Notes: a model not told the origin generated them from the sequence alone. A stretch of 64,000 nt of DNA from Chloroflexota bacterium (GCA_964291655.2 OZ219802.1:1472001-1536000), one strand, 5' to 3'; counted from the stretch's first letter, positions 11,192 to 59,142 are shown. Translations and numbers: made by a program.

Positions 11192-11250
11192 TCCCTCTCC
11201 TCGGGGAGAAGGTTAGAGCCTGCCCCATACTCGATACGGGGGTGAGGGGA
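11192..11250. repeat. CCCTCTCC/GGAGAGGG-type REP with 24-nt insert; empty-site homolog of the MITE target at 35525-35880
   Basis: GAGCCTGCCCCATACTCGATACGGGGGTGAGGGG is uninterrupted here. Confidence 0.85.
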
Positions 11251-14496: not shown

Positions 14497-14855
14497 TCGA
14501 TCAACCCCTCCCTTCGCAGTTCTTCCAGATACTCGTCGTAGAGGTCGTCAGCCACGGGCACGTATTCCTCGTAGAACCGGTCGTTGCCCGTCTTGTCCCC
14601 GCCAATGAGCAGGGTGGACGTTCGTCTCGGGTCGAAGGCGTAGAAGACCCGGATGGGCCTTCCGCCGCTCTGCACGCGAAGCTCTCGCATGACTCCGTGG
14701 CGCGAACCTCTGATGTCCGAGGAGAAGGGGTACGGCAGACTGGGGCCATGCTCCACCAGCAACTCTACTCTGGCGGCTACCTCGTCTTGCTGGCCCTCTG
14801 AGAGACCTTGCCACCACTGCCCGAACTCGTCCGTTTACTCGACATCCCAACGCAT
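14493..14855 (-). pseudogene. RelE/HigB-like (Gp49-type) toxin with in-frame nonsense codon
   Basis: Reads MRWDVE*TDEFGQWW...GPSLPYP..GSRHGVMRELRVQ..RVFYAFDPRR; TAA at 14835-14837. Confidence 0.85.
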
Positions 14856-14861
14856 GGATGC

Positions 14862-14891
14862 ATTATATTCCAAATAAGGAATATACTGCAA
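14862..14891 (-). promoter_or_regulatory. Toxin-antitoxin promoter with operator dyad; probably leaderless transcript
   Basis: Minus strand TTGCAG-N18-TATAAT, with the ATG 6 nt after the -10; perfect inverted repeat TATATTCC-N6-GGAATATA at 14864-14885. Confidence 0.7.
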
Positions 14892-15260
14892 GACACGCTC
14901 GGACTCTCCCACGGGAAATCGCATTCTCGGAGAGATGACACTATATTGACCGCAGTTCAGTCCGCTCCCGGCTCTGTAAGAGGCTGCAACAGCTTTGACC
15001 ACGTAAGATACCCACGCATTGCCGGCGGTCATTTCTCAGATGGATTGGGCATGGAATCGCCTTACTCAGAGCCGCACATGCACTTGACTTCACAAGTTTG
15101 CGCACGCTACAATTCTTTCAAGCTGTCTAGGAATTGCGGTCTTTGCTGTAGTTTCCTGGAAGGGATGGCAGCGGGGGACCAACCACTGGTGTCCCGTCAT
15201 CTCGCTTAGCCGTCGTATGAGTTCAGAATAACGCCTACCAGGCAGGAGGTATCGGTTCTG

Positions 15261-16658: not shown

Positions 16659-16693
16659 CCGGATTGAGTCCGGCACACGAACATTGCGCTATT

Positions 16694-16728
16694 CGCACGC
16701 GTGGGACTTCCCACGCGTGCGTTTTCTT
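16694..16728 (+). terminator. Intrinsic terminator
   Basis: CGCACGCGTGGGA-CT-TCCCACGCGTGCG followed by TTTTCTT. Confidence 0.85.
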
Positions 16729-16935
16729 ATGGTAGACAGTCCTCCCTCTACGCTTGGCCCGCTCGCCCCAGCACCAGAAGCAAGCCCTTTCCTTGGCACA
16801 CCTTCCTCTTCATTCCACTGGCGGTTCGGCTTCGCATGTTTTTCGGACCTTAACATTTGCTAACTGGAAGTAATTCGCTATCCTTAGTATAGGAGATAAC
16901 GCGAATAGTCTCGGCAGAGGATACTACTACCCTTC

Positions 16936-32065: not shown

Positions 32066-32286
32066 CCGTTCGTGCTGAGCCTATCGAATCACAACGGCGC
32101 TTTTGACTCCATCCCGCTCGTGCTGAGACCGTCGAAGCGCAACGGCACGCCTGTCTCTATCCCATTCGTGCTGAGCCCGTCGAAGCGCAACGGCGCGCCT
32201 GTTTCTATCCCGTTCGTGCTGAGCCCGTCGAAGCGCAAAAATGCGTCTGAATCTATCCCGTTCGTGCTGAGCCTGTCGAAGCACAA
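32066..32286. repeat. 48-bp period tandem array of a REP-like unit (5 copies)
   Basis: CCGTTCGTGCTGAGCC(C/T)GTCGAAGC(A/G)CAA-like unit at 32066, 32114, 32162, 32210 and 32258. Confidence 0.92.
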
Positions 32287-32404
32287 TAAGGAAGGCAGTT
32301 GACTTGAAGAGACTCGGTGCAAGCCGACGTTAGGCCACCCAACTCAATTCTGCGCAATTTGCAAAAGCAACAAGCCCATAGTGTTCTGAATAGAGTAACC
32401 CCGA

Positions 32405-32938: not shown

Positions 32939-33739
32939 CTAGTCGCTGTACGCCGCCAGCAGCTTCTCCACGTGCGCGCGTACAGAGTCGCGATCTGCGC
33001 TGCAGACGAGGCACGTAAAGGGGAACTCGCCGGTGGCGCGGAAGCGGGCGGCGTTGGGGTAGTGGAAATCGCCGGTGTGGGTCATGAACTGGCCCCACCA
33101 GCCGTAGGTAAAGGCAGGGCCGGAGACTCTACTCTGCTCGGTCCACTCCGGCGGAAAGAGCGAGCGAAACGGCGGCAAGGAATTAATCCAACTGCCGCAC
33201 TGCACAATCCGGATATCCGGCCGGTCGTGTTCCAAGTCGTCCAGGAGTTTCAGTAGCAACCGCGTCAGGGCGGGCATGTCCCAGAAGGGTGACTTGGGCT
33301 GCACCATGTTCGTGAAGTGGATGTGGACGATGTCTTCCGCGTAGTCGCGGCTGAAGCTGCCGTAGGGCGTGGGCGGGATTACCTGTCCCGCACCCTCCCA
33401 GAGGTTGCCCTTGCGTTCGCCGGCAAGGCGCTCTTCCATCGTGGGATGTAGCAGGGCATAGGCGGCCTCTTCCAGCGCATCCGTAGCCGCGTCATGGCGG
33501 TGCTCGTGAAAGAGTGCTTTCAACCGGTCCACGAGCACATCCCACTCGGGGTCTGGGTGGCCCTGCGCAGGATGATGCTCGCCATCCCAGAGGTGCGTGC
33601 GCCGGTAGATGTCAACGCGGGCGGCGATGAGCTCCTCAAAAGGACGCTGCTCAGTCTGGAGCAAGCGGTGCACGTACCAGGTCTTGAGCTTCACGCACTC
33701 GCGGTCGTAGTTGCGGCGGATGTCTAGCCGAGATGCCAT
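32939..33739 (-). CDS. Hypothetical protein
   Basis: 266-aa ORF with host-like codon usage; motifs HFTN..PKSPF, CGSWINS and WWGQF; family not recognised. Confidence 0.7.
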   Translation of the reverse strand: MASRLDIRRNYDRECVKLKTWYVHRLLQTEQRPFEELIAARVDIYRRTHLWDGEHHPAQGHPDPEWDVLVDRLKALFHEHRHDAATDALEEAAYALLHPTMEERLAGERKGNLWEGAGQVIPPTPYGSFSRDYAEDIVHIHFTNMVQPKSPFWDMPALTRLLLKLLDDLEHDRPDIRIVQCGSWINSLPPFRSLFPPEWTEQSRVSGPAFTYGWWGQFMTHTGDFHYPNAARFRATGEFPFTCLVCSADRDSVRAHVEKLLAAYSD

Positions 33740-33835
33740 TGCTCAATTTCCTGACGGAAAGCGTTGCGAAACATTGTCTGACATGAGTAACCGCATTCAA
33801 GAGGTGAAGATTTCCCCTCACCCCAACTCTCTCCC

Positions 33836-34123
33836 TGTACAGACCGGGGACATAGGTAACAGTTGTTCGGGGACATGGGTTACACATTTTACTGATTGAC
33901 ACCTACGAGAGCATTGGGTTGGTCCGGGTTTGATAAGAGACTGGCGACACAGTGCACTCACTTTCAGCCTGTCAGCTTGTGCCAGAGAAACAAACTGTGT
34001 GCATAAGGATATTGAGCGGATCTAACTTTCAAGGCAAGGACATCGCATACTACGAAAATCCCCTCGTTCTATGGTGTAACCTATGTGCCCGAACATGTGT
34101 AACCCATGTACCCGGTCTATACA
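33836..34123 (+). mobile_element. MITE-A copy 1 (288 bp, TGT..ACA, IS481-like ends)
   Basis: Terminal inverted repeats each with two GG(G/T/C)ACAT(A/G)GGT(A/T)ACA subrepeats; 5-bp duplication CTCCC. Confidence 0.95.
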
Positions 34124-34421
34124 CTCCCCAGGGAGAGGGGGTCATTGTCGCCCGCCTATCTTAGTAATGTATCGCACTGGAAGTCTGCGCGTGGCCCGAA
34201 CCAAGGTGGAGAGGGAGTCTCTCTTGCCCGCCAATCTTGCTCAAGCATCAGTCTGATGGTCCGCACATGCCCTAAACCAAGGTATGGGGGTCTCCAGGCG
34301 GGGATATAACCGTTTGCTCGATTCTCTCTTGAACGCTTCAAACGCCTGCCTAAACGCCTAGGGTCACCGTTTCGCCGGCTGAGCTTGTGGATGTGCTTAG
34401 AAACGATCCCGATTCTGTCGG

Positions 34422-35399
34422 CTACTCTTCCGGTACTACTGTAACAGGCAATCCAGTCTCGATAGATTGCCGCGCCGCCGTGATCAGGCGCATTGCCTCC
34501 ACGCCGTCCTCGCCGGTGACGATTGGCACTGTCTTGCCCGCCACACAGTCGAGAAAGTGGCTAATTTCCATATAATAGCGGTCGAGTCCGCCGACGTCCG
34601 TCTCCACCCGCTCGGTAACGTGATCCAGGCTAAAGCGGCTCCGTCCGGATTGAATGTCGATAACGATAGCGCCGCGTTCGCCGTAAATCTCAATGCACTT
34701 TTCCGAATGGGGCGACGACCAGCTTCCCTCCATGGCGCCGACCACGCCGTCCACACTCTCCGCCATGAAGACAACGGTATCGGTGCCGGCTATGTCTTGA
34801 GCGAGGGTCGCGCCCTTGGCGTAGATGTTCTTTAGCTCTCCAATTAGGTGGCGGAAGAGGTCGACGTAGTGAGGGCCGGACTCCCACAGGATGCCGCCGC
34901 CCCGCGCGGGATCTCCCAACCAGGTGCCGGCCATGAGCTCCACGCCCGCAAACCGGAGGCGGAAATGGTGCAGGGGGCCCAGCTTACCGGCATCGATCCA
35001 TGCTTTGGCTTTGGCGATGGGGGTATAGAAGCGGTTGCAGAATGCGGTCAGTAGATGGACGTTAGCGCGCCGGGCGGCAGCAACCATGGCCTGCCCCTCG
35101 GCCACGCTCATGGCCAGCGGCTTTTCACAGAGCACGTGCAGACCCCGCGCAACCGCCTGTTCGGTAATCTTGCGGTGGGAGGTCGGCGGCGTGCAAATGC
35201 TGACGGCATGCAGTTCTTCACTACGCAGCATGTCCGCGTAGTCGGTGTAGGCTTTTGCGCCGTACTCCTGCGCACGCGCCTCCGCGACGGCCAGAATAGG
35301 ATCGGCCACGGCCACAATCTGCGCCCGACCACTCTTGGCATAGCTGCACAAATGAGAATGGGAAATAGCGCCGCAGCCAATGACGCCCACACGGATCAT
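34422..35399 (-). CDS. Gfo/Idh/MocA family oxidoreductase
   Basis: VGVIGCGAI; HVLCEKPLA; GGGILWESGPHYVD. Confidence 0.92.
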   Translation of the reverse strand: MIRVGVIGCGAISHSHLCSYAKSGRAQIVAVADPILAVAEARAQEYGAKAYTDYADMLRSEELHAVSICTPPTSHRKITEQAVARGLHVLCEKPLAMSVAEGQAMVAAARRANVHLLTAFCNRFYTPIAKAKAWIDAGKLGPLHHFRLRFAGVELMAGTWLGDPARGGGILWESGPHYVDLFRHLIGELKNIYAKGATLAQDIAGTDTVVFMAESVDGVVGAMEGSWSSPHSEKCIEIYGERGAIVIDIQSGRSRFSLDHVTERVETDVGGLDRYYMEISHFLDCVAGKTVPIVTGEDGVEAMRLITAARQSIETGLPVTVVPEE

Positions 35400-35487
35400 G
35401 GAAGAGCCTTTCTCTGTCGAATTGCCACTCCTCAGGCCATGCAAACCGGAAATGCAAGGAGCCCCTCACCCCAGCCCTCTCCCCCAG

Positions 35488-36039
35488 GAGACCTCTGCGC
35501 AACTCTAGCGGTAGCGAAATAGTTCCCTCTCCCTCGACGGGAGAGGGCTAGAGCCTGCCCCGTACTCGATACGTGTATAGACCGGGGACATGGGTAACAG
35601 TTGTTCGGGCTCATAGGTAACACCATAGAACGAGGGGGTTTTCGTAGTATGCGATGTCCTTGCCTTGAAAGTTAGATCCACTCAATATCCTTATGCACAC
35701 TGTTTGTTTCTCTGGCACAAGCTGACAGGCGGAAAGTGAGTGCACTGTGTCGCCAGTCTCTTATCAAACCCGGACCAACCCAATGCTCTCGTAGGTGTCA
35801 ATCAGTAAAATGTGTTACCCATGTCCCCGAACAACTGTTACCTATGTCCCCGGTCTGTACAATACGGGGGTGAGGGTGAATCTCCGAATTCTCTCCATAG
35901 CATACAGATATTTGCTCGGCTACATCTTGACACTGCACCAGCGCAAGGGGCCACCGCAACATAAAGATCCCCTCACCCCGACCCTCTCCCCGAGGAGAGG
36001 GAGGTTTGCTCGCCGACAGGTAAGTTACGCAAAGGTCTC
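35488..36039. mobile_element. MITE-B (GAGACC..GGTCTC ends) containing REP hairpins and MITE-A copy 2
   Basis: Ends GAGACCTCTGCGCAACT and AGTTACGCAAAGGTCTC; CCCAG on both sides; sits inside a CCCTCTCC/GGAGAGGG hairpin. Confidence 0.85.
35574..35861 (-). mobile_element. MITE-A copy 2 (variant, about 11 substitutions)
   Basis: Same 288-bp length; 5-bp duplication ATACG. Confidence 0.95.
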
Positions 36040-36170
36040 CCCAGGGAGAGGGAGTCACTTTGCGCTTGCGGGTCGTTCGTACGCCAATCCCGCCGGTCGT
36101 ATGACTATGCCTCTGTTGAGCGATTCGCCGGGCTTCCGACCCCGGCAGAAGAAGATGCATGCCGTTTCGT

Positions 36171-36920
36171 TCATTGTTTTCGGCCTACCATGAGCCGAGT
36201 GAGCAAGCCGAACTGGGGCGGCGCGATTGCGAATGTCTCGCGTAGTGCCGGCGGCGCAGCGGCGAAGCGCGCACGCAACTCTTCAACAGCCTCCGGCGGT
36301 GTTTGCTGGCGGGCGACCCAATCGTCAAACTCCAACATCTTCAGCCAGGTGTGCGTCACCGCAAAGTTGAGGCCCGCCGCGTGAAAGAAGCCCTGCCACT
36401 CACCTTGGCTCCACTCGCGCACGTGCGAAGGGTCGCGCAGCACCTCCACAGCATTAATCCAGCGGTCCGCGATGGAATCGTCTGGTGACGTATTGTCCAC
36501 CACCAAGAAGCGGCCCCCAGCGGTCAGGACACGCGCCACTTCCTGCACCACGCGGGCGGGCTGTTGGAAGTGGTGCCCGGTGTAACGGCAAACAACGAGA
36601 GAAAAGCTCTCATCCGGAAACGGCAGGTGCTCAGCATTGCCGACGCTGGCTGCAAAATGAGCAATGCCGCGCTCGTAGGCATTGCGGCAGGCGGTCAAAA
36701 CCATCTGGGGCGTGATGTCAAAGCCGATGATTTGTCCCGCGCAGCGGGACAGAGCAAAGGCGGCGTGGCCCGCGCCGGTGCCGACATCCAGTGCACGGGC
36801 ATGTTGGCCGGGGCCGGCCTGCTCCACGAGCCAGTCCAGGTCCTCGCCCTCCGCGAAGGCCGCACTCTGGCTATACGCTTCTGCCGCACGGCCGAACTGT
36901 TTCTGAACTTGCTGATACAT
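36171..36920 (-). CDS. Class I SAM-dependent methyltransferase (YcgJ/YafE-like)
   Basis: ALDVGTGAGH, NAEHLPFPDESF, CR..GHHF and RDPSHVR motifs. Confidence 0.9.
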   Translation of the reverse strand: MYQQVQKQFGRAAEAYSQSAAFAEGEDLDWLVEQAGPGQHARALDVGTGAGHAAFALSRCAGQIIGFDITPQMVLTACRNAYERGIAHFAASVGNAEHLPFPDESFSLVVCRYTGHHFQQPARVVQEVARVLTAGGRFLVVDNTSPDDSIADRWINAVEVLRDPSHVREWSQGEWQGFFHAAGLNFAVTHTWLKMLEFDDWVARQQTPPEAVEELRARFAAAPPALRETFAIAPPQFGLLTRLMVGRKQ

Positions 36921-37130
36921 CGTCTCAGATAACCGTATCGCTCCCCAGGCCGGCAGACGAGATGACTCACTTACTCTGAGGTAATAACACCCATCCCAAG
37001 CTGTCAGCCCGCAAGACTCATTCTGCCTAGGAGACCATCGCACAGCCCAATTCTACAGGCGGCAAGACTCCCTCTCCCCTTGAAGACCCTACACGCCCAC
37101 ACCTAGCAGACCAAAAGACTCCCTCTCACC

Positions 37131-37244
37131 AGAAAGCCCCTGTGCACCCCTGCCCTGCAGGCCGCAAGACCCCCTCTCCCTGGGGAGAGAAAGCCCATGT
37201 GCACCCCTGCCCTGCAAGCCGCAAGACCCCCTCTCCCTGGGGAG
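37131..37244. repeat. 57-bp tandem duplication containing a REP hairpin
   Basis: 37131-37187 and 37188-37244 differ at two positions; more degenerate units lie upstream to about 37060. Confidence 0.85.
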
Positions 37245-37532
37245 TGTATAGACCGGGTACATGGGTTACACATGTTCGGGCACATAGGTTACACCATAGA
37301 ACGAGGGGATTTTCGTAGTATGCGATGTCCTTGCCTTGAAAGTTAGATCCGCTCAATATCCTTATGCACACAGTTTGTTTCTCTGGCACAAGCTGACAGG
37401 CTGAAAGTGAGTGCACTGTGTCGCCAGTCTCTTATCAAACCCGGACCAACCCAATGCTCTCGTAGGTGTCAATCAGTAAAATGTGTAACCCATGTCCCCG
37501 AACAACTGTTACCTATGTCCCCGGTCTGTACA
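37245..37532 (-). mobile_element. MITE-A copy 3
   Basis: Reverse complement of copy 1; 5-bp duplication GGGAG. Confidence 0.95.
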
Positions 37533-37943
37533 GGGAGAGGGCCGGGGTGAGGGGAATCTTCACCGTTACCGCCTATTGCCGCACGCTCGTCAGGACCGAA
37601 AATACATCCTTGGGACCAAGCCGTCTCATCCGCAGTCCCAAATCATCCAGCCTCCACTTAATCGCCGCGCTCCGCGCGGTTGCACAGCAACGACACAACT
37701 GTCCGCTCACGGCGGCTGTAACGTAACGACCTCAATGGGTCAAGCGGTCTCGATTCAGCAACTCCACGCCTCCGCCTCTCCGCATGGTAAAGGATGCGCC
37801 GCACTCAGGGCAACGGGAACATGACACTGGTTTAGTGCTATGCTAGAATCGTGGTTCGGGTGAAGAAGATGACACGTCCTTTGACGAATGGATATGTAAG
37901 TTTCTTTGTGTACGTAGCTCGTGGCAAGAAGGAGTTGCTCTTG

Positions 37944-38462
37944 ATGCGGTGGGGTTTGCGCGTTCCCTTGGCGCTCGTCGCGCTTGTGCTTTCGTTGATA
38001 CTTATCAGCGCTTGTGGTGGCGAAGAGAAAGCAGCCTGGAGTTGGGATGAAGACCCAACGCCCGAGACAGTCGCCTCCACAGATTCCTCTACCACCAAGA
38101 AAGATGATGCATGCGAACCGATGCCGGATTGCATCGAGGTTACCGTGGACCTTAGTAAGGGCAGGGCCGAGGACGGGATGGAGCTATTCGAGACAAAGGG
38201 ATGCGTCGCCTGTCATCAGGTTGAAGAAGGCGGCCCCGGTGGCACAATTGGCCCCTTACTTGCCGGTATTGGCGATCCCGCGGCGCGCCCGCAACTGGCG
38301 GCGGGTGATGAAGGTGCGGCAGGCATTCCCAACACTCCTGAGAATATCTGGCGCTGGGTGCAGTTCCCGCAAAAGATCAAGCCGGGAACGGAAATGGCGC
38401 CGCAACCCCTTGATGAGCAAGAGGCCGCTGACCTGGTAGCGTATCTGCAGACGCTGAAGTAG
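37944..38462 (+). CDS. Monoheme cytochrome c lipoprotein
   Basis: ISAC lipobox; CVACH heme motif; GP.L.GIG; P..IKPGTEM axial Met. Confidence 0.88.
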   Translation: MRWGLRVPLALVALVLSLILISACGGEEKAAWSWDEDPTPETVASTDSSTTKKDDACEPMPDCIEVTVDLSKGRAEDGMELFETKGCVACHQVEEGGPGGTIGPLLAGIGDPAARPQLAAGDEGAAGIPNTPENIWRWVQFPQKIKPGTEMAPQPLDEQEAADLVAYLQTLK

Positions 38463-38524
38463 TGCGTCCGGCGAACCGCAATTGGCCGCAGAGTTCGTGC
38501 GGCTCTTTCAGGGACCCGTAGTCG

Positions 38525-38983
38525 ATGCGCAGGCTTGTCCAAATCGCCGCAGGCCTATCTCTCGTCACTCTGTGGCTTGCTGCACTAACCGGCTGTCTTC
38601 CTTGGGATTCTCAGGAGCAGTCGACTGCTCAACCCATCGCGAATGGTGGTTCCCGCGCTTCCGCCAACCCGCTGTCAACCGTTCCGCCGGGAATTCTCGA
38701 CAATGGCAGCGCGACACAGGGCCAAGCGCTCTTCGCAAGCAAGGGGTGTACTGCTTGCCACCAGATCGGCGGTGAAGGCGGCAGCGCCGGTCCCGCCTTG
38801 GACGGCATCGGCGACCGGACGAAGCGGCCAACGCTGGCAGGCAACCTTGCAAACACGGCGGAAAACTTGTGGCTCTGGATCACGGATCCGCGATCGATCA
38901 AGCGTGATACCCTCATGGCGTCGCAGCCGCTCACTCCCCAAGAAGCCGTCGACCTCGTAGCATACCTGGAGACTCTGAAATAG
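38525..38983 (+). CDS. Monoheme cytochrome c lipoprotein, tandem paralog
   Basis: LTGC lipobox; CTACH motif; shared C-terminus DLVAYL.TLK. Confidence 0.88.
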   Translation: MRRLVQIAAGLSLVTLWLAALTGCLPWDSQEQSTAQPIANGGSRASANPLSTVPPGILDNGSATQGQALFASKGCTACHQIGGEGGSAGPALDGIGDRTKRPTLAGNLANTAENLWLWITDPRSIKRDTLMASQPLTPQEAVDLVAYLETLK

Positions 38984-39053
38984 GTGACTGTGCAGGCGGG
39001 AGGACTCCCTCTACCTGGGAAGAGAACAGGCGAATGATCCCACTCTCCCTGGG

Positions 39054-39800
39054 GAGACTTTTGCATAACCCTTGCTGGGGCGAGAAAGTCCCCTCTCCCG
39101 GTGGAGACCTTTGCATAACCCCACTTTCAAGCAGGGGCACTCCCTCTCCTGGGGGAGAGGGTCTTTTTGCTACGATGGCCCTTTACGCTGGGCAGTGTCA
39201 AGACGTATCAGGGCAGATTTGGTGTGCATATGGAGAGATTTCACGAGATTCACCCTCACCCTAACCCTCTCCCATCTGTACAGACCGGGGACATAGGTAA
39301 CAGTTGTTCGGGGACATGGGTTACACATTTTACTGATTGACACCTACGAGAGCATTGGGTTGGTCCGGGTTTGATAAGAGACTGGCGACACAGTGCACTC
39401 ACTTTCAGCCTGTCAGCTTGTGCCAGAGAAACAAACTGTGTGCATAAGGATATTGAGCGGATCTAACTTTCAAGGCAAGGACATCGCATACTACGAAAAT
39501 CCCCTCGTTCTATGGTGTAACCTATGTGCCCGAACATGTGTAACCCATGTACCCGGTCTATACAGGGGAGAGGGCCGGGGTGAGGGGGTCCTTATGCTAC
39601 GATGGCCCTTTACGCTGGGCAGTGTCAAGACGTATCAGGGCAGATTTGGTGTGCATATGGAGAGATTTCAGGAGATTCACCCTCACCCTAGCCCTCTCCC
39701 GTCGAGGGAGAGGGGACATCCGCGCTGTGGCGAGGGTTATGCAAAGGTCTCCGCCGGGAGAGGGGACTTTCCCGCCCCGCGTGGGTGATGCAACAGTCTA
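39054..39800. mobile_element. Doubly nested MITE-B structure (inner element 39104-39751) around MITE-A copy 4
   Basis: Left ends GAGACTTTTGCATAACC (39054) and GAGACCTTTGCATAACC (39104); right ends at 39751 and 39800; 106-bp direct repeat at 39168-39273 and 39595-39700. Confidence 0.8.
39277..39564 (+). mobile_element. MITE-A copy 4 (no matching target duplication)
   Basis: Appears identical to copy 1; flanks CCATC and GGGGA. Confidence 0.95.
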
Positions 39801-39859
39801 CCCAGGGAGAGGGTTGGGGTGAGGGTGAAGCATCAGAATAAGGTCAAATTGAAAGCGTA

Positions 39860-40507
39860 CTAGCCCTTCTGGCTGGTTCCCCGCAGCACCCAACCCAGCA
39901 CTGCCACCACCACAACTAAGAGCACCGCAAAGCCCAACCACGCCGGAATAAATTCCTGTAAAGGACTTTCAGCGGACGTGGTTGCATCGGCCCCGGCAGC
40001 CGTTGAACGTGTCCGCTCAATCCGGAAACCGGACTGTCGATAGGGCTCGCTGGTACCCGCGGCAGGCACTTGGCCCTCACCCAGCGCGTCAATGTCCGAC
40101 TGCGCGAGCGACAAGCGGCGCGTGCGGCTGCAAGGGACTGCGGTCTCGCCGTCGTAGGAGTAGACCAGCCACTCCTGTCCCACGTAGAACTCCACCCCGC
40201 AACTGCCGCTCCACCATGCCGTTTCGATGAACATGGTGGCATAGGCCTGGCCTTTCCAGACGGCGTACACTTCGAACTCCACCAAGACGTACCCGCTGAG
40301 CAGCGCCGGTTCGCGCAGCGTGCCGTCGCCCCCGCTGACGTGCACAACCTTCCCCGAGAACACTTTTGCGCTCTGCGCCAACGCCTCGGTGGGAGAGGGC
40401 GTTTCCCCGCACGAGCACGCATCTACGTCACCTACGAACAAGAGAAAGCAAAATCCGGCAAAGAATATTGCTGAGGAAAATCGCAAGGCTTGAACGGTCG
40501 TCATCAT
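39860..40507 (-). CDS. Membrane-anchored TIMP/NTR-like domain protein
   Basis: Signal peptide then ACSC; VFSGKV, V..VWKG, SCG..F..G.EWLVY and CSRT; C-terminal transmembrane helix. Confidence 0.7.
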   Translation of the reverse strand: MMTTVQALRFSSAIFFAGFCFLLFVGDVDACSCGETPSPTEALAQSAKVFSGKVVHVSGGDGTLREPALLSGYVLVEFEVYAVWKGQAYATMFIETAWWSGSCGVEFYVGQEWLVYSYDGETAVPCSRTRRLSLAQSDIDALGEGQVPAAGTSEPYRQSGFRIERTRSTAAGADATTSAESPLQEFIPAWLGFAVLLVVVVAVLGWVLRGTSQKG

Positions 40508-40809
40508 CACTTAATTATGTCTCATTCGTATGAAGCAATAACACTTGCCAACTCCCTGACTACTCCGTTGCAACGCAAGTACAAGTAGACGCACTAGGTG
40601 GGTTTCTCACTTAGCTGGTGGTCTAGTTACTCATCGTTGTATTTTTTTGTTTGCAACCTGATCCTGCGGAGTCCTGCAGATGCGAACTCTTAACCTACAA
40701 ACTCGAGGGTCGGCACAAGTTGACATACCGGTTGCGAACACTACCCGCACCTAATACATTGGATGGTGCGCGCAATTCGACTGGCAACAACAAGGCAAGG
40801 GAGCACAAG

Positions 40810-42657
40810 ATGGATTATATGGGCTACGGTATCGAAAATGAATTCCTCCAAGGGGTGCTAGGTGGATCAGCGGAGGGGAATACACAACTTCCCGACTTTC
40901 AGCGAGGTTGGGTGTGGGACGACGAACACGTGCGGAGCCTCCTCTCAAGCATCACTCTAGGATATCCGATCGGTGCAGTCATGATGCTTGAGGTCGGGGG
41001 CGATAGTGTTCGCTTCAAGCAACGCCCGCTTGAGGGTGCACCTGAGCCGAAGCAGGAAGCCGAGCGGTTAATCCTTGACGGACAGCAGCGGATAACGTCG
41101 CTATTCCAGTCCCTCCGCCCTGACCAACCAGTTCGCACCCGCGACCAGCGCGGACGGCAAATCGACCGCTGGTACTACATCAAAATGGAACTGGCTCTGG
41201 ACCCAAGTTCCGATCGTGAGGACGCGGTGGTCTCGCTGCCAGCAGACCGGCAGATCAAACGTTTCGGGCGCGATGTCATAGAGGACTACTCGACTCCCAA
41301 TCTAGAGTATAAGGCAATGCTCTTTCCGCTGTCCCAGGCATTCGATTCGAGCGACTGGCGTGTGGGCTTCGAAAAGTACTGGGACTACAACAGAGAGAAG
41401 ATCAAACTGTGGAACGAATTTGAAAAGAAGATCGTCAAGCGCATTCAGCAGTACCAAGTGCCGGTAATTGAGCTTGGAAAGGACACTCCGAAAGAGGCTG
41501 TGTGCCAAGTCTTTGAGAAGGTGAACACAGGGGGCGTGACACTTACTGTTTTCGAGCTGCTTACCGCAACTTTTGCAGCTGACGACTTCCAATTGCGACC
41601 AGACTGGGAGGTACGGGAGCGTACGATACACTCCCAGTCGGTACTCACTGGCGTGTCCAATACGGACTTCCTTCAGGCTGTAGCGTTGCTCGCAACCCTT
41701 GAGCGGCGGCAGGTTGCCATGCGTGATGGCACGGACGCGGACCGTGCGCCGGGAGTAGGGTGTAAGCGCGCGGACATGTTGCGGCTGAGTCTCGAAGAGT
41801 ATCAGAGGTGGGCGGATCCACTGATGAGGGGCTTCGAGAGGGTGGCGCGATTTCTTCACGCGCAACGCCTTTTCGACGCCAAGTTCCTGCCCTACGGTAG
41901 CCAATTGATTCCGTTGGCCGCAATCCTCACAGAACTTGACAGCGATTGGGAGCCGCACCCTGCGAGGGAGAAGCTCGCGCGCTGGTACTGGTGCGGCGTC
42001 CTAGGAGAATTGTACGGTGGATCAGTCGAGACTCGATTTGCCCTCGACCTTCCGGAGGTTGTGAATTGGATTCGGGACAACGGGCCAGAGCCGAGGACGA
42101 TCTATGACGCTGAGTTCGCCCCGGCCCGACTGCTTACACTGCGCACCCGGAATAGCGCAGCATATAAGGGCGTGTACGCACTGCTGCTGCGCGAAGGTGC
42201 ATGCGACTGGATCACAGGAGAGGAATCGTCGATACAGTCCTACTTCGACGAGAGAATCGACATCCACCACATCTTCCCCCAAAAATGGTGCCGCGAGCAG
42301 GGGATAGAGGCAGCGCGCTGTGACTCGATTATCAACAAGACGCCACTCACGGCACGGACGAACCGTAGCATTGGCGGCCAAGCGCCCGGCGCATACCTGA
42401 ATCGCATCATGTCGGATGGCGTTTCGCGAGACGCGCTGAACATCTACCTCGACTCGCATCTCATCGACCCCGAGCACCTATGGCTTTCCGATTTTAGTCA
42501 ACTCTTTCGCGCAAGGGAATCGGCTCTTCTCAATGCAATCAGGAAGGCGATGGGGAAGCCCATCGCGTCCAGGACGGTAGATGAGCCCGACGACACGCCG
42601 GTCGATTACGAACTTGTGCAGGAAGATAGTTTGGAGTTGGAGGGCGTGCCTGGTTGA
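40810..42657 (+). CDS. GmrSD-type modification-dependent endonuclease (DUF262 plus HNH-like domain)
   Basis: LPDFQRGWVW, LDGQQR, FEKVNTGG; C-terminal DIHHIFP..N.TPL...TN..I; RBS AAGGGAG. Confidence 0.88.
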   Translation: MDYMGYGIENEFLQGVLGGSAEGNTQLPDFQRGWVWDDEHVRSLLSSITLGYPIGAVMMLEVGGDSVRFKQRPLEGAPEPKQEAERLILDGQQRITSLFQSLRPDQPVRTRDQRGRQIDRWYYIKMELALDPSSDREDAVVSLPADRQIKRFGRDVIEDYSTPNLEYKAMLFPLSQAFDSSDWRVGFEKYWDYNREKIKLWNEFEKKIVKRIQQYQVPVIELGKDTPKEAVCQVFEKVNTGGVTLTVFELLTATFAADDFQLRPDWEVRERTIHSQSVLTGVSNTDFLQAVALLATLERRQVAMRDGTDADRAPGVGCKRADMLRLSLEEYQRWADPLMRGFERVARFLHAQRLFDAKFLPYGSQLIPLAAILTELDSDWEPHPAREKLARWYWCGVLGELYGGSVETRFALDLPEVVNWIRDNGPEPRTIYDAEFAPARLLTLRTRNSAAYKGVYALLLREGACDWITGEESSIQSYFDERIDIHHIFPQKWCREQGIEAARCDSIINKTPLTARTNRSIGGQAPGAYLNRIMSDGVSRDALNIYLDSHLIDPEHLWLSDFSQLFRARESALLNAIRKAMGKPIASRTVDEPDDTPVDYELVQEDSLELEGVPG

Positions 42658-42774
42658 CTGTTTGCCTTGGTCGTGATTTGTTCCTGAGGGGTAGCGATTC
42701 GCAACTGTTTTTTTGTTTAGCCATTTGCGTGGTCTGTTGTGAGGTCTGTGAAAGAACGGTTCCATCCGTAACAT

Positions 42775-42935
42775 TCAAAGGCCAACCGGCGTCACGAAAG
42801 GGGTAATTTCGGTGCGGAGTCTCTGCTCCCGGAAGCGATTGGCAAGCGGGCGCCGCGGCCTCTTCTTGGCAGACGGTGAATACCGTTGGCCCGCTGCCGG
42901 AGACCTGGGCGTGTTGAGCGCTGGCTTGCATCAAG
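42775..42935 (-). pseudogene. Diverged, frameshifted 3' fragment of ispE
   Basis: MQASAQHAQVSGSGPTVFTVCQE aligns with MQAGAERAHVSGSGPTVFAVCED of IspE; after a frameshift it reads LANRFREQ against LANRIRMQ. Confidence 0.8.
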
Positions 42936-43021
42936 TCGTTTTTGTGCCACTGTGATCTACGGCCGCAGGCATGTCGCTGCTGTCACTGCTAGTCCTGCCA
43001 GTAATCGGCGGCCGCTGTCGA

Positions 43022-44629
43022 TCACAACTTTATTGGGGTATTGGTGCCTGTTAATTGGCAGGGCGAGCCCGCACTTGGCCAATTTCCTTTGACGAAGTCG
43101 GCAGCCCGCTCTGCCATTGCAATCACCGTGTGGTTGAGGTTGGCCCGCACGGTATCGGGCATGATTGACGCGTCGCAGATGCGGAGGCCCACGACGCCGT
43201 GCACCCTGCCGTATTGGTCCGTCACGGCCAGTGGATCGGTGGCGGGCCCCATTTTGCAGGTGCTTGAGACGTGATGGGCCGTGACCACCTCGCGTTTCAT
43301 CCATGAATCCAGGGCAGCGTCATCGTCAAGGACATTGTCCGCGGGCGCGACCCGTTCAGCGACCATGTCTGCGAAGGCTGCATGTTGGAACAACCCGGCG
43401 CAGGTCCGGATGCTCTCGCGCAGCCGCGAGCGGTCGAACGGATCGTCCAGCAGGTTGAAGTCGAGGTACGGCTGCTGCCGCGGGTCATCGGATTGGAGGC
43501 GGAGTTCGCCCTGGCTCAGGGCCAAATAGAGGCACTGGCTCACGCCGATGCCTATCGGAATCAGATGGTCCGCGCCCCGCATGGGCCGTTCCGCCGCATA
43601 GTTGCCCATGTAGATCACCAGGTCATTCTTGAATGGCGAACCGGTGGCCGTATAGCGCAGCGTGACCATGCCCGTCGCCACCTGAGAGGTGAACAGGCGA
43701 AATCCTGCTCGCGTGCGCCAGGCCATGGGCACGTCCGGGTGGTCGCGAAGATTGCGGCCGACGCCTGGGAGGTCGTGCACAACGGGTATGCCAAACTGCC
43801 GCGACTGCGCCGCCGGTCCGATTCCCGATAGCGCCAGGATGTGGGGCGAGCCGATCGCCCCGGCGCAGAGGACGATCTCGTCGCCATAGACGTCAAACGT
43901 TTCATTCCCGCTGATAGCGCGCACGCCTACTGCGCGGTTGTCCTGAAAGATGATGCGGTGGACGAGGCAGCGGGGTCGAATAGTCAGCTCCGGACGGGCG
44001 CGGGCAGGATTGAGGTAGGCGAAGGCCGTGCTCACACGCGTGCGGCCCGCAATGTTGAACGCCAGCGGTCCTACGCCTGTGGCATGGGGCAAATTGTGGT
44101 CGGGACAGTCGGGAATTCCGGCGTCACGGCAGGCCTCATAGAACGCGTGCTGTTGGGGTCCCCATACGCCGGGCTGAAACCGGTGGCAGTACATGGGACC
44201 GTCCGCGCCGTGAAGCTCGCTTTGAAAGTCCGCGTCCGCTTCCAGTTTCTTTAGATAGGGTAAGACTTTCGCGTACTCCCACTCCGGATTGCCCCACGAC
44301 GCCCACCGCTCGAAGTCTTCCGGCATTGCCCGCAAGAACTGCGCGTCGTTGACAGCGCTGGAACCGCCGGTGACCTTGCCGCGCGGTATATCAATCTCGG
44401 CTTCATCCGTCGCCCGGGCGCGAAACTTCCATATGTGTTCGGTCTCCCAGAGGCTTGTGTCAACGCCGTAGACGTACTCTAGCGGGTGCGGCAACCGCGC
44501 CTCCGAGGGAAAGTCCGCCCCGGCCTCGAGCAGCAGCACCGAGCGGTGGGGGTCTTCGGTCAGGCGGGCCGCCAAGACCGCGCCAGCCGAACCCGCGCCA
44601 ACGATAATGTGATCGTATCTCTTGCTCAT
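43022..44629 (-). CDS. GMC family oxidoreductase (choline dehydrogenase-like)
   Basis: IVGAGSAG..LA.RL; RGKVTGGSSAVN; VGRNLRDH; H..STCKMG; DASIMP. Confidence 0.93.
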   Translation of the reverse strand: MSKRYDHIIVGAGSAGAVLAARLTEDPHRSVLLLEAGADFPSEARLPHPLEYVYGVDTSLWETEHIWKFRARATDEAEIDIPRGKVTGGSSAVNDAQFLRAMPEDFERWASWGNPEWEYAKVLPYLKKLEADADFQSELHGADGPMYCHRFQPGVWGPQQHAFYEACRDAGIPDCPDHNLPHATGVGPLAFNIAGRTRVSTAFAYLNPARARPELTIRPRCLVHRIIFQDNRAVGVRAISGNETFDVYGDEIVLCAGAIGSPHILALSGIGPAAQSRQFGIPVVHDLPGVGRNLRDHPDVPMAWRTRAGFRLFTSQVATGMVTLRYTATGSPFKNDLVIYMGNYAAERPMRGADHLIPIGIGVSQCLYLALSQGELRLQSDDPRQQPYLDFNLLDDPFDRSRLRESIRTCAGLFQHAAFADMVAERVAPADNVLDDDAALDSWMKREVVTAHHVSSTCKMGPATDPLAVTDQYGRVHGVVGLRICDASIMPDTVRANLNHTVIAMAERAADFVKGNWPSAGSPCQLTGTNTPIKL

Positions 44630-44831
44630 GCTATTCAGTCGGTCGTGCGCGCGCGTTTCCGTGCGGCCGGCTTGCCTTCCCGCGCGGTGTAGATCTCTTC
44701 CACCGCATTGGAGGGCCGATATGCAAAGAATCCTTTGTGTAATGTTAGCGGTTCCGTGAGAGTTTCTTCTCCCTTGACAGAGTCCCTTGCGTAACTCTAG
44801 CGGAAGCGAGTATGTTCCCTCTCCCGCGATG

Positions 44832-44976
44832 GAGACCTCTGAATTGCTCCGTCATACCGGCGAAAACTGGAATCCAGAAGTCTGAGGGTAGCTTGCGATT
44901 ACTAGCTATGGAGCCAAAGTGTACTCCTCACCACTTGGACATCCTCATGAAGGGGATAGGGTTTTGCAAGGGTCTC
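44832..44976. mobile_element. Inner MITE-B-like element in a hairpin loop
   Basis: GAGACCTCTG..TTGCAAGGGTCTC flanked by CGCGATG and CGCGACG. Confidence 0.7.
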
Positions 44977-46700
44977 CGCGACGGGAGAGGGTTAGAGCCT
45001 GCCCGTAGGTGATATGGGGTGAGGGTGAATCTCCTGAAGTCTCTCCATATGCACACCGACACTGCCCTAATACGTCTTGACACTGCCCAGCGTATAGTGC
45101 CATTGTAGCAAGTAGACCCCCTCACCCCAACCCTCTCCCCCAGAGGCTGTCTCAATATTTTGGTGCGGGGCACGGTGAATGGGGTGAGAAGGACAGACAG
45201 ATGGCGGGTGGTATGAACAAGACGGTGCCAGTGAGAGACTCGTCCCCGGGGCGACGCTGGACTACACCCAGACCGCCACAGGGCGTGGAGGCTCTTGAGA
45301 TTGAACGCGGTGGCCAGCAGGTGCCATTCGGACGTCACGTGGCTGCGGCCTCTGAGCAGGAAGCGCCTGGCACTGTGCCACTCCTTGAGCAGGCCAAAGA
45401 CCGGCTCGACGATGGTACTCCGGCGGCGGTACACCTGCTTGGCAGGCGCGGTGGCCATCAACTGCCTGTGCCGTTGCAGTATTGGCTCGTAGGCGCTGAT
45501 CTTTATGGAGCGGCCCCTCTGGGAGGAGGTGCAGACGCCGAAGGCCGGACAGGTTCTGCAGTCCCGGCCGTTGGCTTGGTACCGCTTGACCCGGTAGCCG
45601 TTGCTGTGGGTCAAGCGGTGCGTGTAGGTGAGCACCTTTTGCTGGGGACACAGGTAGGTGTCGGTCTCTGGACGGTAGGTGAAGTGGTCTTTATGGTAGG
45701 GGTTGCGGCGTCTGCGCTCGTGGGTCGTGGGCATCAATACCGTGTGGCCGCCGGCGTGGCACGTGGCGAGGTTGGCCCCCGAATGGTAGCCGGCGTCCGC
45801 AACGGTCACCACGTCCCGCGCGGCGTCGATGTTCTCCTGCGCCGCCTCGATCAGCGGCGCCAGGTGGGGATGGTCGTCGGCACTGGCGCTCACGTCCACG
45901 GCTGTGATCAACCTCCCCCCTGCGCCCTCGTCCGGGGACGCAAGAGGGGAGACCAGCGCCTGGGCGTTGTAGCCGGTGATGAAGCCACCCATGCCAGTCT
46001 TGAGCAGGGCCGCGTCCGCATCAGTCAGGTTCGTGTAGCGCGGCCCGTCCTCAGCCGCGACGCGGGCGAGCGCGTCGTCCACCCGCCGCCGCAGGGCCTG
46101 GGCATCGGCAAGTTCCTGCGGCAAAGTCGCTGGCGGCGCGTCGCCCCCCGTGGCGTTCTGCGCCTCCAGGTCCGCGATCGCTTGCTCGGTGCGGGACAAC
46201 AGCCGCTGCAGCCCCTGCGCGTCGTGGGTATGCCGCGTCCCGGCGTTGGCCGCGATCCTGGTGCCGTCCACCGCCTGGATTGCCAACTCCACCAGGCCGG
46301 CTCGCACCGCCGTGCGCACCGTGCGCTTGAGCAGCGTCCGCATCCGGTCGCGGTGCGCCTTGTAGAAGCGCCACAGCGTGTTGTGGTCCGGCTGCTGCAT
46401 CCCCACCAGCCACAGGTACGGTACCTGATCCCGGCAGGCTGCCTCCAGCTTGCGGCTCGAGCGCACGCCGGTCATGAAGCCGTAGACCCATACGCCCAGC
46501 AGCGCGCGCGGATGGTAGGCCCCGGCGCCACGCGGATCGCCTTGCAGGTCAATCTCCATCGCCTCCCAGGCCGCAGCATCGAGGCTGTCCACGAACGCTG
46601 CCGCAAACCTGACAGGATGGTCGTCCGGGATCAGTTCGTCCAGCGTCGGCGGCAACAGCCAGGCCTGTTCACGACTAAACGGTCTCAACGGCATCGTCAC
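44928..46700 (-). CDS. IS1182 family DDE transposase (frame runs past the IS end)
   Basis: Q..LLPP.LDELIP.DHP, YHP..LL, SSRKLE, PDHNT, DGT.I.AN, GYNAQ, ADAGY, Y.CP and YRRR..IVEPVFG motifs. Confidence 0.93.
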   Translation of the reverse strand: MTMPLRPFSREQAWLLPPTLDELIPDDHPVRFAAAFVDSLDAAAWEAMEIDLQGDPRGAGAYHPRALLGVWVYGFMTGVRSSRKLEAACRDQVPYLWLVGMQQPDHNTLWRFYKAHRDRMRTLLKRTVRTAVRAGLVELAIQAVDGTRIAANAGTRHTHDAQGLQRLLSRTEQAIADLEAQNATGGDAPPATLPQELADAQALRRRVDDALARVAAEDGPRYTNLTDADAALLKTGMGGFITGYNAQALVSPLASPDEGAGGRLITAVDVSASADDHPHLAPLIEAAQENIDAARDVVTVADAGYHSGANLATCHAGGHTVLMPTTHERRRRNPYHKDHFTYRPETDTYLCPQQKVLTYTHRLTHSNGYRVKRYQANGRDCRTCPAFGVCTSSQRGRSIKISAYEPILQRHRQLMATAPAKQVYRRRSTIVEPVFGLLKEWHSARRFLLRGRSHVTSEWHLLATAFNLKSLHALWRSGCSPASPRGRVSHWHRLVHTTRHLSVLLTPFTVPRTKILRQPLGERVGVRGSTCYNGTIRWAVSRRIRAVSVCIWRDFRRFTLTPYHLRAGSNPLPSRRPLQNPIPFMRMSKW

Positions 46701-46786
46701 TACCTCTCTACAAACTATCCCACCACCTCACCTTGCTTCTCTTCACACCAGTATATATCCAGTAGATCTATTTTTGAGACACCCTC
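45143..46786 (-). mobile_element. IS1182 family insertion sequence
   Basis: Inverted repeats GAGGCTGTCTCAATATT / GAGGGTGTCTCAAAAAT; sits in the loop of CCCTCTCC..GGAGAGGG. Confidence 0.92.
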
Positions 46787-46833
46787 CCCGGGAGAGGGAG
46801 TGCCCCTGCTTGAAAGCGGTATGCAATGGTCTC

Positions 46834-47052
46834 CATCGGCAAGGGCTCCCAAACCATGAACGACATCGTCCAGCGCCCCGTACGGTGGTCCGCTCGCGCA
46901 GGCCTAGTCGGTAAGCCGGCGGCATGGTGGCCGTCGAACCTCACCGACCTGGCCGCCAGCCTATTGAGAGCGGGTGTGCGAATTGCAGGACTGTCGTAGG
47001 ATCGTGGGTGGTCCCTGCGGAAGCTGTCTGCAACCACACAGATGACATTCAA
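46834..47052 (-). pseudogene. Truncated sulfatase-like N-terminal fragment
   Basis: NVICVVADSFRRDH..Y....IRTPALNRLA..SVRF......PT.PARAD..TGR, ending at the MITE-B terminus. Confidence 0.7.
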
Positions 47053-47135
47053 ATTGACTGCTCCCTGATGCTCCCGACAAATGTACCATAGGCCGCGAGG
47101 AGCAGGCAGAGTCTGTGCGCCGTTGGCTCCTAGCC

Positions 47136-48029
47136 TTACATGCCGGCGTGGCCCCAGGTCCTCCCGGACTGAACAATGCGGACGAGCTCGGCGGCGTACC
47201 CCTGCATTCGGATGCGGTTGGCAAGCGCGAGTGCGGCGTGCCTGTCTTCGCACACGGCAAAGACCGTAGGGCCGCTGCCGGAGACGTGAGCACGCTCGGC
47301 GCCGGCTTGCATCAGGGCAATCTGCGCTGCTGCAATTTCCGGCGCCAGGTCGCGAGCGGAGCGGGCTAAGCCGTTGTGCCAGCGAATCTGTGGTGAGAGC
47401 GTGCCGAGCCGGGCGGCGGCAACGGCGTCTGCGGTGGCGACGCCTGAGGTGTAGTCCGACGGGGTTACGGAGCCATAGACCTCCGCTGTGCTAAGCGTGG
47501 TTGGCAGCAGCACGAGCACCACCCAGTGCGGTGGCAGTGGCGGCAGTGGCGTGATGCGTTCACCGCGACCGGTGGCAAGCGCCGTGCCGCCTGTGAGAAA
47601 GAACGGCACGTCCGATCCCAATCCGGCAGCCAGTGCCTGCATCTCCGTTAGGGGTAGTTGAAGATTCCACAGCCGGTTGAGGGCAATGATAGCTCCCGCC
47701 GCATCGCTGCTGCCGCCGCCCAGGCCGGCCGCGACCGGTATGCGTTTCTCCAGACTGAGCGCGGCGCCCGCCCGCACGGAGAATTCTGTCTGTAGCCGCC
47801 GCGCGGCGCGATACATGAGATTATCCGGCTTTGCCAGCACGGGGTCTGAACATGTGAAGGATAGTTCGTCTGCCGCCGCGACCTCCAGCCGGTCGGCCAG
47901 CCCGACGGTCTGCATCACCGAGCGAACCTCATGGAAGCCGTCGGCGCGTTTCCCCAATATCTCCAGGGTCAGATTGATCTTGGCGTAGCAATTAACAACC
48001 ACGGTGATCCCGATCTCTCGTGCAGGCAC
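47136..48029 (-). CDS. ispE: 4-diphosphocytidyl-2-C-methyl-D-erythritol kinase
   Basis: AKINLTL, KRIPVAAGLGGGSSDAA, LGSDVPFF, GRGE and SGSGPTVF motifs. Confidence 0.97.
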   Translation of the reverse strand: MPAREIGITVVVNCYAKINLTLEILGKRADGFHEVRSVMQTVGLADRLEVAAADELSFTCSDPVLAKPDNLMYRAARRLQTEFSVRAGAALSLEKRIPVAAGLGGGSSDAAGAIIALNRLWNLQLPLTEMQALAAGLGSDVPFFLTGGTALATGRGERITPLPPLPPHWVVLVLLPTTLSTAEVYGSVTPSDYTSGVATADAVAAARLGTLSPQIRWHNGLARSARDLAPEIAAAQIALMQAGAERAHVSGSGPTVFAVCEDRHAALALANRIRMQGYAAELVRIVQSGRTWGHAGM

Positions 48030-48199
48030 GACACCATCTTAATGCACAACAGGGATGGCCGGTACCTTGCCATCCCTGCGTTCAATTCAATTCGGCTCTA
48101 GCGTGTTTCAGATGTGCGGTCTGCACGAGCATGCGGACTCTCAGAGCTTGCCTGTCTTGAGTTTGACGAAGAGTGGAAGGGCAGGTCATGTTGTTCGAG

Positions 48200-48601
48200 G
48201 AGACCTTTGCGCAACCCCCGCCGGATGCGCAAGAACCACTCCCTCTCCCTGGGGAGTGTATAGACCGGGTACATGGGTTACACATGTTCGGGCACATAGG
48301 TTACACCATAGAACGAGGGGATTTTCGTAGTATGCGATGTCCTTGCCTTGAAAGTTAGATCCGCTCAATATCCTTATGCACACAGTTTGTTTCTCTGGCA
48401 CAAGCTGACAGGCTGAAAGTGAGTGCACTGTGTCGCCAGTCTCTTATCAAACCCGGACCAACCCAATGCTCTCGTAGGTGTCAATCAGTAAAATGTGTAA
48501 CCCATGTCCCCGAACAACTGTTACCTATGTCCCCGGTCTGTACACTCCCCAAGGAGAGGGGGCAGTTCTTGCGCCACCGGCCGGGGTTACGCAAGGGTCT
48601 C
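48200..48601. mobile_element. MITE-B arms in inverted arrangement around MITE-A copy 5
   Basis: GAGACCTTTGCGCAACC.. and ..GGTTACGCAAGGGTCTC; the two 57-bp arms are imperfect reverse complements. Confidence 0.8.
48257..48544 (-). mobile_element. MITE-A copy 5 (inverted flanks)
   Basis: Appears identical to copy 3; flanks GGGAG and CTCCC. Confidence 0.95.
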
Positions 48602-58828: not shown

Positions 58829-59056
58829 GAGGCCTTTGGCTAACGCCGTCATTCAGGCGAAAAGTCCGCCCCGTACGTGAAACAGGGGTGAAGGCGAATC
58901 CCCTAAAACCTGTATATAGCGCACCGATTATTGCGCTGCTACATCGTGAAGCTGCACATTGCAAGGGGCAATTGTAGCCATAGGAGCCCTAACCCCGACC
59001 CTCTCCCCCAGGAGAGGGAGGTTTTGTCGCCTGCTGTTGGGTTACGCAAGGGTCTC
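58829..59056. mobile_element. Degenerate MITE-B copy
   Basis: Right end GGTTACGCAAGGGTCTC; body resembles 35870-36039; decayed left end GAGGCCTTTGGCTAAC. Confidence 0.6.
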
Positions 59057-59142
59057 CGCCAAGGGAGAAGACTCAACAGGTTGGCGTTGACAGCCAATTC
59101 AAGATGCGGGCAAGCAACCGGTCCTCGCAAACACCGGCGAGA

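Follow-up and report, generated by a model that had tools for sequence, protein, structure and literature searches.

A probable IS481-family-derived MITE inserting at a fixed place of a REP-like repeat in a Chloroflexota genome

Insertion sequences (IS) that settle in repetitive extragenic palindromic (REP) sequences have been described from several transposase families. In the survey by Tobes & Pareja 2006 (PMC1525189), ISPsy8, ISPa11, ISPpu9/10, ISRm22, ISRm19 and IS621 appear as REP-targeting elements, the families surveyed being five (IS3, IS110, IS4, IS256 and IS5), with all or most copies located in REPs; ISPsy8 duplicates a few bases at a constant position of the REP. Experiments cited there suggest that the transposases of IS1397 and ISKpn1 are themselves responsible for the REP specificity of these two elements. 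The term IS481 has 0 occurrences in the text of that article, and a search of the open-access literature found no title or abstract describing REP targeting by an IS481-family element. The present analysis concerns a 288-bp MITE (a transposable element of the miniature inverted-repeat type), named MITE-A, which is found in five copies in a 64-kb stretch of DNA (GCA_964291655.2 OZ219802.1:1472001-1536000, or C2:1472001-1536000; this whole stretch is referred to as the window) of the genome of a Chloroflexota bacterium (3.47 Mb, two contigs, ~59% G+C). This MITE is very probably a non-coding derivative, made by internal deletion, of a 1265-bp IS of the IS481 family, inserting at a fixed place in a REP-like repeat with an extended asymmetric sequence as its target. 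The pair is a REP-targeting IS plus MITE, a behaviour already known from other IS families, and the accepted view of how such elements work is left unchanged.

Compared with IS1397 and ISKpn1, which belong to the IS3 family, the elements described here have in common an rve-type DDE transposase, short target duplications and a set place in the REP in all or nearly all copies. Unlike these two elements of enterobacteria, the present IS is a member of the IS481 family with a single open reading frame (ORF), resides in a Chloroflexota host and is accompanied by abundant cognate MITEs. Furthermore, IS1397 reportedly targets the central part of the palindromic unit, whereas here the 5-6-bp duplication lies off-centre in one arm and not on the symmetry axis. 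The type element of the IS481 family, from Bordetella, resembles the present IS by its TGT..ACA ends, its length of about 1-1.3 kb, its one ORF, its N-terminal helix-turn-helix (HTH)/leucine-zipper region and its rve core; it prefers a short palindromic hexamer and not a REP, while the target here is a repeat of roughly 30 bp. The two binding-site-like subrepeats at each end are a feature of the MITE and IS of this genome, unconfirmed for the IS481 family. As regards IS-derived bacterial MITEs in general, the likeness extends to ends of a resident IS, lack of coding capacity, equal duplication length and many near-identical copies, and nothing essential differs; particular to the MITEs examined here are two lineages that match two IS lineages and a decayed transposase start still present inside the element.

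MITE copies, partner insertion sequence and origin of the core

The five window copies of 288 bp start at 33836(+), 35574(-), 37245(-), 39277(+) and 48257(-). Copies 1 (33836..34123) and 4 (39277..39564) are identical to each other, copies 3 (37245..37532) and 5 (48257..48544) are their exact reverse complement (288/288), and copy 2 (35574..35861) matches the other window copies at 277/288 positions; a preliminary description of this DNA, made from the sequence of the stretch, had indeed counted five such copies and judged four of them identical. Its description of the termini was likewise accurate: the MITE ends are TGT..ACA, and each end carries two subrepeats, which are 17-nt direct repeats (CGGGNACATRGGTWACA) placed 23 bp apart. 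In copy 1, which matches a master sequence of 16 copies exactly, these presumed transposase binding sites are located at 33845-33861 and 33868-33884 for the left end (33845..33884, + strand) and at 34075-34091 and 34098-34114 for the right end (34075..34114, - strand). All five copies lie inside REP-like palindromes, in agreement with the preliminary description, and between ORFs of at least 150 aa. The 5-bp duplications that it had given for three of the copies were also recovered: CTCCC for copy 1 (33831..33835 on the left and 34124-34128 on the right), ATACG on the + strand for copy 2 (35569-35573 and 35862-35866), which reads CGTAT in element orientation, and GGGAG for copy 3 (37240-37244 and 37533-37537). 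Copies 4 and 5 are without target duplication.

A genome-wide census was performed by blastn of the 288-mer against the whole genome, and the 131 rows obtained resolve to 45 full-length MITE copies and 24 pairs of ends exactly 1265 bp apart. The MITE copies make up three lineages, namely A, with 33 copies (16 identical), B, with 11 copies that are 287 bp long and ~75% identical to A, and C, with a single copy (71%). A target duplication is present in 58/69 elements, MITE and IS together, with 43 duplications of 5 bp and 15 of 6 bp. The duplication lengths of the two kinds of element agree (5-6 bp in both), the MITEs having 31 of 5 bp and 6 of 6 bp with none in 8/45 copies, and the IS 12 of 5 bp and 9 of 6 bp with none in 3/24. 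By eye, each of the 11 elements without duplication has REP-type sequence on at least one flank.

The autonomous element with the same termini, for which the preliminary description had proposed a search, is present genome-wide as the 24 copies of 1265 bp, all of which match MITE nt 1-55 and 235-288. This IS has one long frame, with 398-406 codons open in 24/24 copies, and 11 of the copies are identical. Its product scores 290.3 bits on the NCBIfam model NF033577 'IS481 family transposase' (cut-off 224) and 117.8 bits on the IS3 model, under the cut-off of 160; the Pfam matches are rve, HTH_32 and LZ_Tnp_IS481. Members of the IS481 family have a single transposase ORF without programmed frameshift, a length of about 1-1.3 kb and TGT..ACA ends. 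With its single ORF, its 1265 bp and its TGT..ACA ends, the partner is an IS481-family IS. From the ends of the MITE, either IS481 or the Tn7/Tn552/Mu group had been put forward in the preliminary description; the score on NF033577 upholds the former. The latter group also has TGT..ACA ends, several subterminal repeats and a 5-bp duplication, and was ruled out by the sole longer elements with these ends, namely the 1265-bp elements, whose one ORF is of the IS481 type and which lack accessory genes.

Two lineages of the IS, IS-1 and IS-2, with products ~86% identical by tblastn, are present together with a chimera. Over the terminal 50 nt, MITE-A matches IS-1 at 46/50 and 50/50 positions, and MITE-B matches IS-2 at 50/50 and 48/50. 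The two chimeric copies, with an IS-1 left end and an IS-2 right end (C2:909903-911167 and C2:1793963-1795227), suggest recombination between the IS lineages.

As for the ~185-nt core of the MITE, it is what remains of the IS after an internal deletion, and not cargo, because it aligns to the right end of the IS, where the transposase gene begins. In two genomes of the same genus (G004 and G005), copies of the 1265-bp IS align with nt 1-64 of the MITE and, at 72-74%, with its nt 110-288. When the three MITE lineages are compared with the right ends of the G004 IS and of the IS resident in this genome, nt ~106-288 (33941..34123 in copy 1, - strand, from the DNA alignment and tblastn) are seen to correspond to the IS terminus, the former 5' untranslated leader and ~30 decayed N-terminal codons of the transposase. 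The former start region is still visible but closed, the ATG of the IS being TTG in the MITE and followed by TGA two codons on. With the transposase frame as query, tblastn matched 19 MITE copies (18 MITE-A and m8, a 289-bp variant), in which 54-61 residues of this frame are aligned at 46-50% identity, with a best E of about 1e-10. An RNA carried by the core, as suggested in the preliminary description, was set aside as unsupported, the core being IS-derived and an Rfam search of 33700-39800 (E<=1) giving no match on any MITE copy. The sole Rfam matches in this interval were sub-threshold matches of whalefall-1 to both strands of a REP at 35969-36053 (23 and 19.5 bits, gathering score 37), a metagenomic motif that may resemble this kind of repeat.

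The target within the REP-like repeat

The target repeat is a short, abundant, mostly intergenic imperfect palindrome, as are REP and REPIN sequences. In this genome, 459 arm 9-mers were found to have a palindromic partner, which corresponds to about 230 hairpins, and the CCCTCACCC module was counted 346 times. Read in repeat orientation, its layout is CCCCTCACCCC-NN-CCCTCTCCC-NN-GGGAGAGGG, and nearly all insertions are found at one place of it. In 58/58 duplication-bearing insertions, a 9-mer that either equals CCCTCTCCC (28 cases) or differs from it at one position (30 cases) lies 0-3 bp from the duplication, the spacing being 1-2 bp in 55/58, and the target consensus is CCCTCTCC(C/T)-N1-2-[GGGAG]-AGGG-NN-GGGGTGAGGGG. 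The duplicated bases vary (CGTAT, CGACG, GAGGG, CCCGTC, AGCCCT) while the determinant arm is constant. At the sites with a 5-nt loop, C2:2343382 (CGACG) and C2:2239738 (CCCGTC), direct reading shows that the distance of 1-2 bp to the arm is kept, while the offset from the dyad shifts from about 3.5 to about 1-2.5 bp.

With respect to the element, the flanks fall into two mirror classes, the 9-mer being on the left in 34 and on the right in 24 insertions (p = 0.24), with no orientation preference. The 5'-arm position that the preliminary description had given for the duplication, read in element orientation, proved to be an effect of the small sample. With respect to the repeat, the two arms are used far from equally: 50 insertions have the GGGGTGAGGG module beyond the duplication, and 7 have it behind the determinant arm (binomial p = 4e-9).

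In the window, the REP interrupted by copy 1 can be followed by direct reading on both sides of the element. Its left half (33814..33835, + strand) consists of the module CCCCTCACCCC at 33814-33824 and the module-proximal arm at 33827-33835; its right half (34124..34139, + strand) consists of the second copy of the duplication, then CA as a 2-nt loop and, at 34131-34139, the determinant arm GGGAGAGGG. The hairpins of copies 1 and 3 and that of copy 2 had been considered unrelated in sequence. Their stems do differ, yet they belong to one composite REP family, and both kinds of site have CCCTC[T/A]CCC 1-2 bp from the duplication. The copy-2 hairpin, CCCCGTA/TACGGGG, is the second hairpin of a composite repeat variant (CCCTCACCCC-CGTATCNNGTACGGGG-CAGGCTCTAGCCCTCTCCC...), of which the genome contains 25 strict copies, and the CGTAT duplication begins 1 bp after CCCTCACCC. 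The first hairpin of the same composite REP, made of CCCTCTCCC, a 5-nt loop and GGGAGAGGG, is unoccupied (35525..35547). The empty homolog of the copy-2 site that had been reported at 11217..11250 is present as well, as a composite-REP second hairpin beside a GGGGTGAGGGG module, with one stem mismatch.

Shared ends, target and duplication length point to an IS-encoded transposase that would act in trans and mobilise both the IS and the MITE. The enzyme would bind each end at its two 17-nt subterminal repeats, which are kept in both kinds of element, and would cut the REP-like repeat at one fixed place with a stagger of 5-6 bp. Its target is best described as asymmetric, formed by CCCTCTCC(C/T), 1-2 bp, the duplicated 5-6 bp and AGGG-NN-GGGGTGAGGG; the constant feature is the C-rich arm beside the duplication, the duplicated bases may vary, and either orientation of the element is accepted. 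In such a scheme, the copy-2 hairpin is a secondary site, with the related 9-mer CCCTCACCC standing at an equal distance. The transposases of the IS3 and IS481 families are related DDE enzymes, and the chemistry of transposition is assumed to be theirs. As to which component reads the target, we infer that it is the transposase.

Relatives of the IS in other genomes were also considered, and 80 of 578 related loci, with 56-85% protein identity to the IS transposase, were analysed. The IS ends were located by anchored termini; L036 and L080 gave no ends, and L052, L054 and L075 (<4 kb) were left out. The host records are metagenome-assembled genomes (MAGs) of Chloroflexota or Dehalococcoidia, with one further locus each in records titled Planctomycetota, Desulfurivibrio, Desulfobaccales, Thiotrichales and 'uncultured delta proteobacterium'. 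C-rich/G-rich arms of the same kind are found around the insertion in these relatives and the duplications vary (GGCCT, ACGGG, GCGTGCG, GAAAG and others). The IS clade and this type of repeat seem to co-occur widely. Two relatives at 57-59% identity, L055 (Desulfobaccales MAG) and L061 (Thiotrichales MAG), were seen in CCC..C-rich/G-rich palindromes beside a CCCTCACCCC-like or CCCCTCCCCC-like module.

Recent mobility and alternative explanations for target choice

The MITE has been recently active, as is evident from its 16 identical copies and from precise empty orthologous sites in the closest genome, G008, whose MITE is 95% identical; the preliminary description had come to the same view of a recently active, non-autonomous element. 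At the G008 loci orthologous to copies 1-3 the element is absent and the duplicated bases are single, with one CTCCC at the site of copy 1, while the empty sites of copies 2 and 3 are located in G008:C42 and G008:C70 respectively. Moreover, the segment 39565..48256, about 8.7 kb, is inverted relative to G008 (G008:C70 against the query, 7361-7924, 10611-12121 and 14339-15757 reverse; 5034-6605 and 16163-17001 forward) and is flanked by the inversely oriented copies 4 and 5, each of which forms one boundary of the inversion. This arrangement is as expected for an inversion by recombination between these two copies, and the lack of duplications at both is explained by it, because the inversion exchanged their flanks: GGGGAG occurs in the flank to the right of copy 4 as well as in that to the left of copy 5 (in element orientation). 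The other flank pair (left of copy 4, right of copy 5) shows no duplication, and the G008 region differs by further insertions; since this pair does not match, one end of the inversion had a further history.

Several observations weigh against an extended sequence as the whole of the target and indicate that the 9-mer alone is insufficient. Solitary 9-mers are occupied in 0/279 cases compared to 55/459 for those with a palindromic partner (Fisher p = 1.7e-12). For intergenic sites only, the values are 0/139 solitary and 30/279 palindromic (p = 3.7e-6), on a crude gene map of greedy ORFs >=100 aa in which many REP clusters are labelled coding and which serves as a rough control for selection only. 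Palindromes with two mismatches are occupied in 0/34 cases (p = 0.023). Because solitary 9-mers and two-mismatch palindromes are never used, the partner arm or the hairpin that it forms is therefore needed too, and these data cannot separate duplex sequence from hairpin. In addition, three genomes of the genus have an insertion in the copy-2-type site, namely a MITE in G000, a full IS in G005 (L017) and a further insertion in G015, the hits in G000 and G005 being clearly separate events. This recurrence hints that the local hairpin helps; the contrast within G000, the genome in which available target sites were counted, is not significant (1/232 ordinary module sites with the same CCCTCACCC hit versus 1/25 of the copy-2 type, p = 0.19). 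A genus-wide pattern search returned 14 junctions in 7/17 genomes, three of them of the CGTAT type. Finally, in relatives at 63% identity (L040-L048) the hairpin is longer and the duplication coincides exactly with its loop apex, as a structure-guided or symmetric reader would give. Survivorship, by loss of insertions made elsewhere, could shape part of the pattern as well, but it cannot account for a position fixed within about 1 bp in the repeat.

Target choice by hairpin geometry, in hairpins of different sequence, was the explanation favoured in the preliminary description; in this case a transposase or transpososome on cruciform or single-stranded DNA would read the geometry whatever the sequence of the stem. 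Every insertion is in a palindrome, both empty sites fold as DNA hairpins of about -8 kcal/mol, and the unused solitary 9-mers and two-mismatch palindromes, the hits in the CCCCGTA/TACGGGG hairpin of three genomes and the loop-apex insertions of the 63% relatives are all to its credit. It is nonetheless improbable, considering that none of the 58 insertions is in a hairpin without a C-rich 9-mer (at most one mismatch) at 0-3 bp and that hairpins of arbitrary sequence are not used. The mirror positions of a symmetric stem are used 50 versus 7 times, which a symmetric hairpin alone would not give. It is also the distance to the arm, and not the offset from the dyad, that is kept with 5-nt loops; in copy 2 the opposite stem-loop junction is at 4 nt (1-2 nt at the other sites), yet CCCTCACCC is at 1 nt; and the arms remain one sequence type across relatives. 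Tabulated genome-wide, the insertions are indeed in palindromes, but their position follows the 9-mer arm, to which the palindrome may add a contribution of its own. A requirement of the transposase clade for both a C-rich arm and an extruded stem-loop, with cutting at a set distance from the stem-loop junction, would account for the unused solitary 9-mers, the recurrence in three genomes and the loop-apex insertions. We consider it unlikely, although if true it would amount to a structure-assisted target choice not described for the IS481 family.

A host factor bound to the REP, such as a nucleoid protein or a REP-associated enzyme, could instead recruit the transposase and own the specificity. 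The asymmetric use of the repeat and the joint need for arm, partner and module would be consistent with the footprint of a protein. Another IS481-like IS (55% identical) uses the same repeat in another register with CCCTC at the arm base, and other unrelated sequences also break these hairpins. Such tethering is very improbable: no such factor came out of the analysis, and the sole REP-associated tyrosine transposase-like gene of the genome (C2:2523379-2524059, i.e. L128:1399-2079, minus strand; NF047646, 82.2 bits for a cut-off of 80) is flanked by a different, GCGGGCGNGACGCCCGC-like palindrome and not by the CCCTCTCCC repeat. The apparent responsibility of the IS1397 and ISKpn1 transposases for their own REP specificity (PMC1525189) also argues against it, and the presence of relatives from other phyla (L055, L061) in this kind of repeat is easier to understand if specificity travels with the transposase. 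As for copies produced by assembly error, which the preliminary description had named as fatal to its own reading, or by segmental duplication together with their REP flanks, four of the five window copies are identical and 11/69 elements are without duplication, as could be held in its favour. The chance of this is negligible: flanks are unique and differ among copies, 58/69 elements have 5-6-bp duplications, the duplications missing from copies 4 and 5 are accounted for by the inversion with its shared GGGGAG, and the single-copy empty sites of copies 1-3 in G008 refute it. Transposition of an IS-derived MITE into an extended asymmetric sequence of the repeat, with partner arm or hairpin as a further need, is therefore retained as the very probable explanation.

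The 58 insertions dated by identity, together with the two IS/MITE lineages, the second-register IS and the empty sites of a sister genome, form a natural data set that bears on how a DDE transposase reads a palindromic repeat. The elements also account for many repeats in these Chloroflexota genomes and for at least one 8.7-kb inversion, and are probably behind contig breaks in short-read assemblies.

Other elements and repeats associated with the REPs

The second IS481-like IS is 1287 bp long and present in four full copies (C2:1707063-1708349, 1755174-1756460, 1906013-1907299 and 2408023-2409309) and as a lone end at C2:1965576. Its ends are of the TGTATAGACC type, the transposases of this IS and of the 1265-bp IS share 55% identity, and in its register of the REP the flanks share CCCTC or GAGGG at the arm base. 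REP hairpins are, in addition, often trailed or interrupted by recurring GGAGACCTTTGCGTAAC-like or GAGGCTGTCTCATGA-like sequence (35970-36040, 58987-59057 and many other sites of the genome), which may be the ends of further repeats or IS using the same REP.

Around MITE copy 4, a 129-nt direct repeat, 94% identical, is found on both sides of the element (39148-39276 and 39575-39703); each unit begins and ends with REP modules, and such REP-bounded units seem to be tandemly arranged. Upstream of the MITE region, at 32066-32305, a tandem array with a 48-bp period is formed by 4 overlapping 96-nt copies that are 66-100% identical, each unit of the array containing a short palindrome, GTGCTGAGCC..TCGAAGCGCAACGG.

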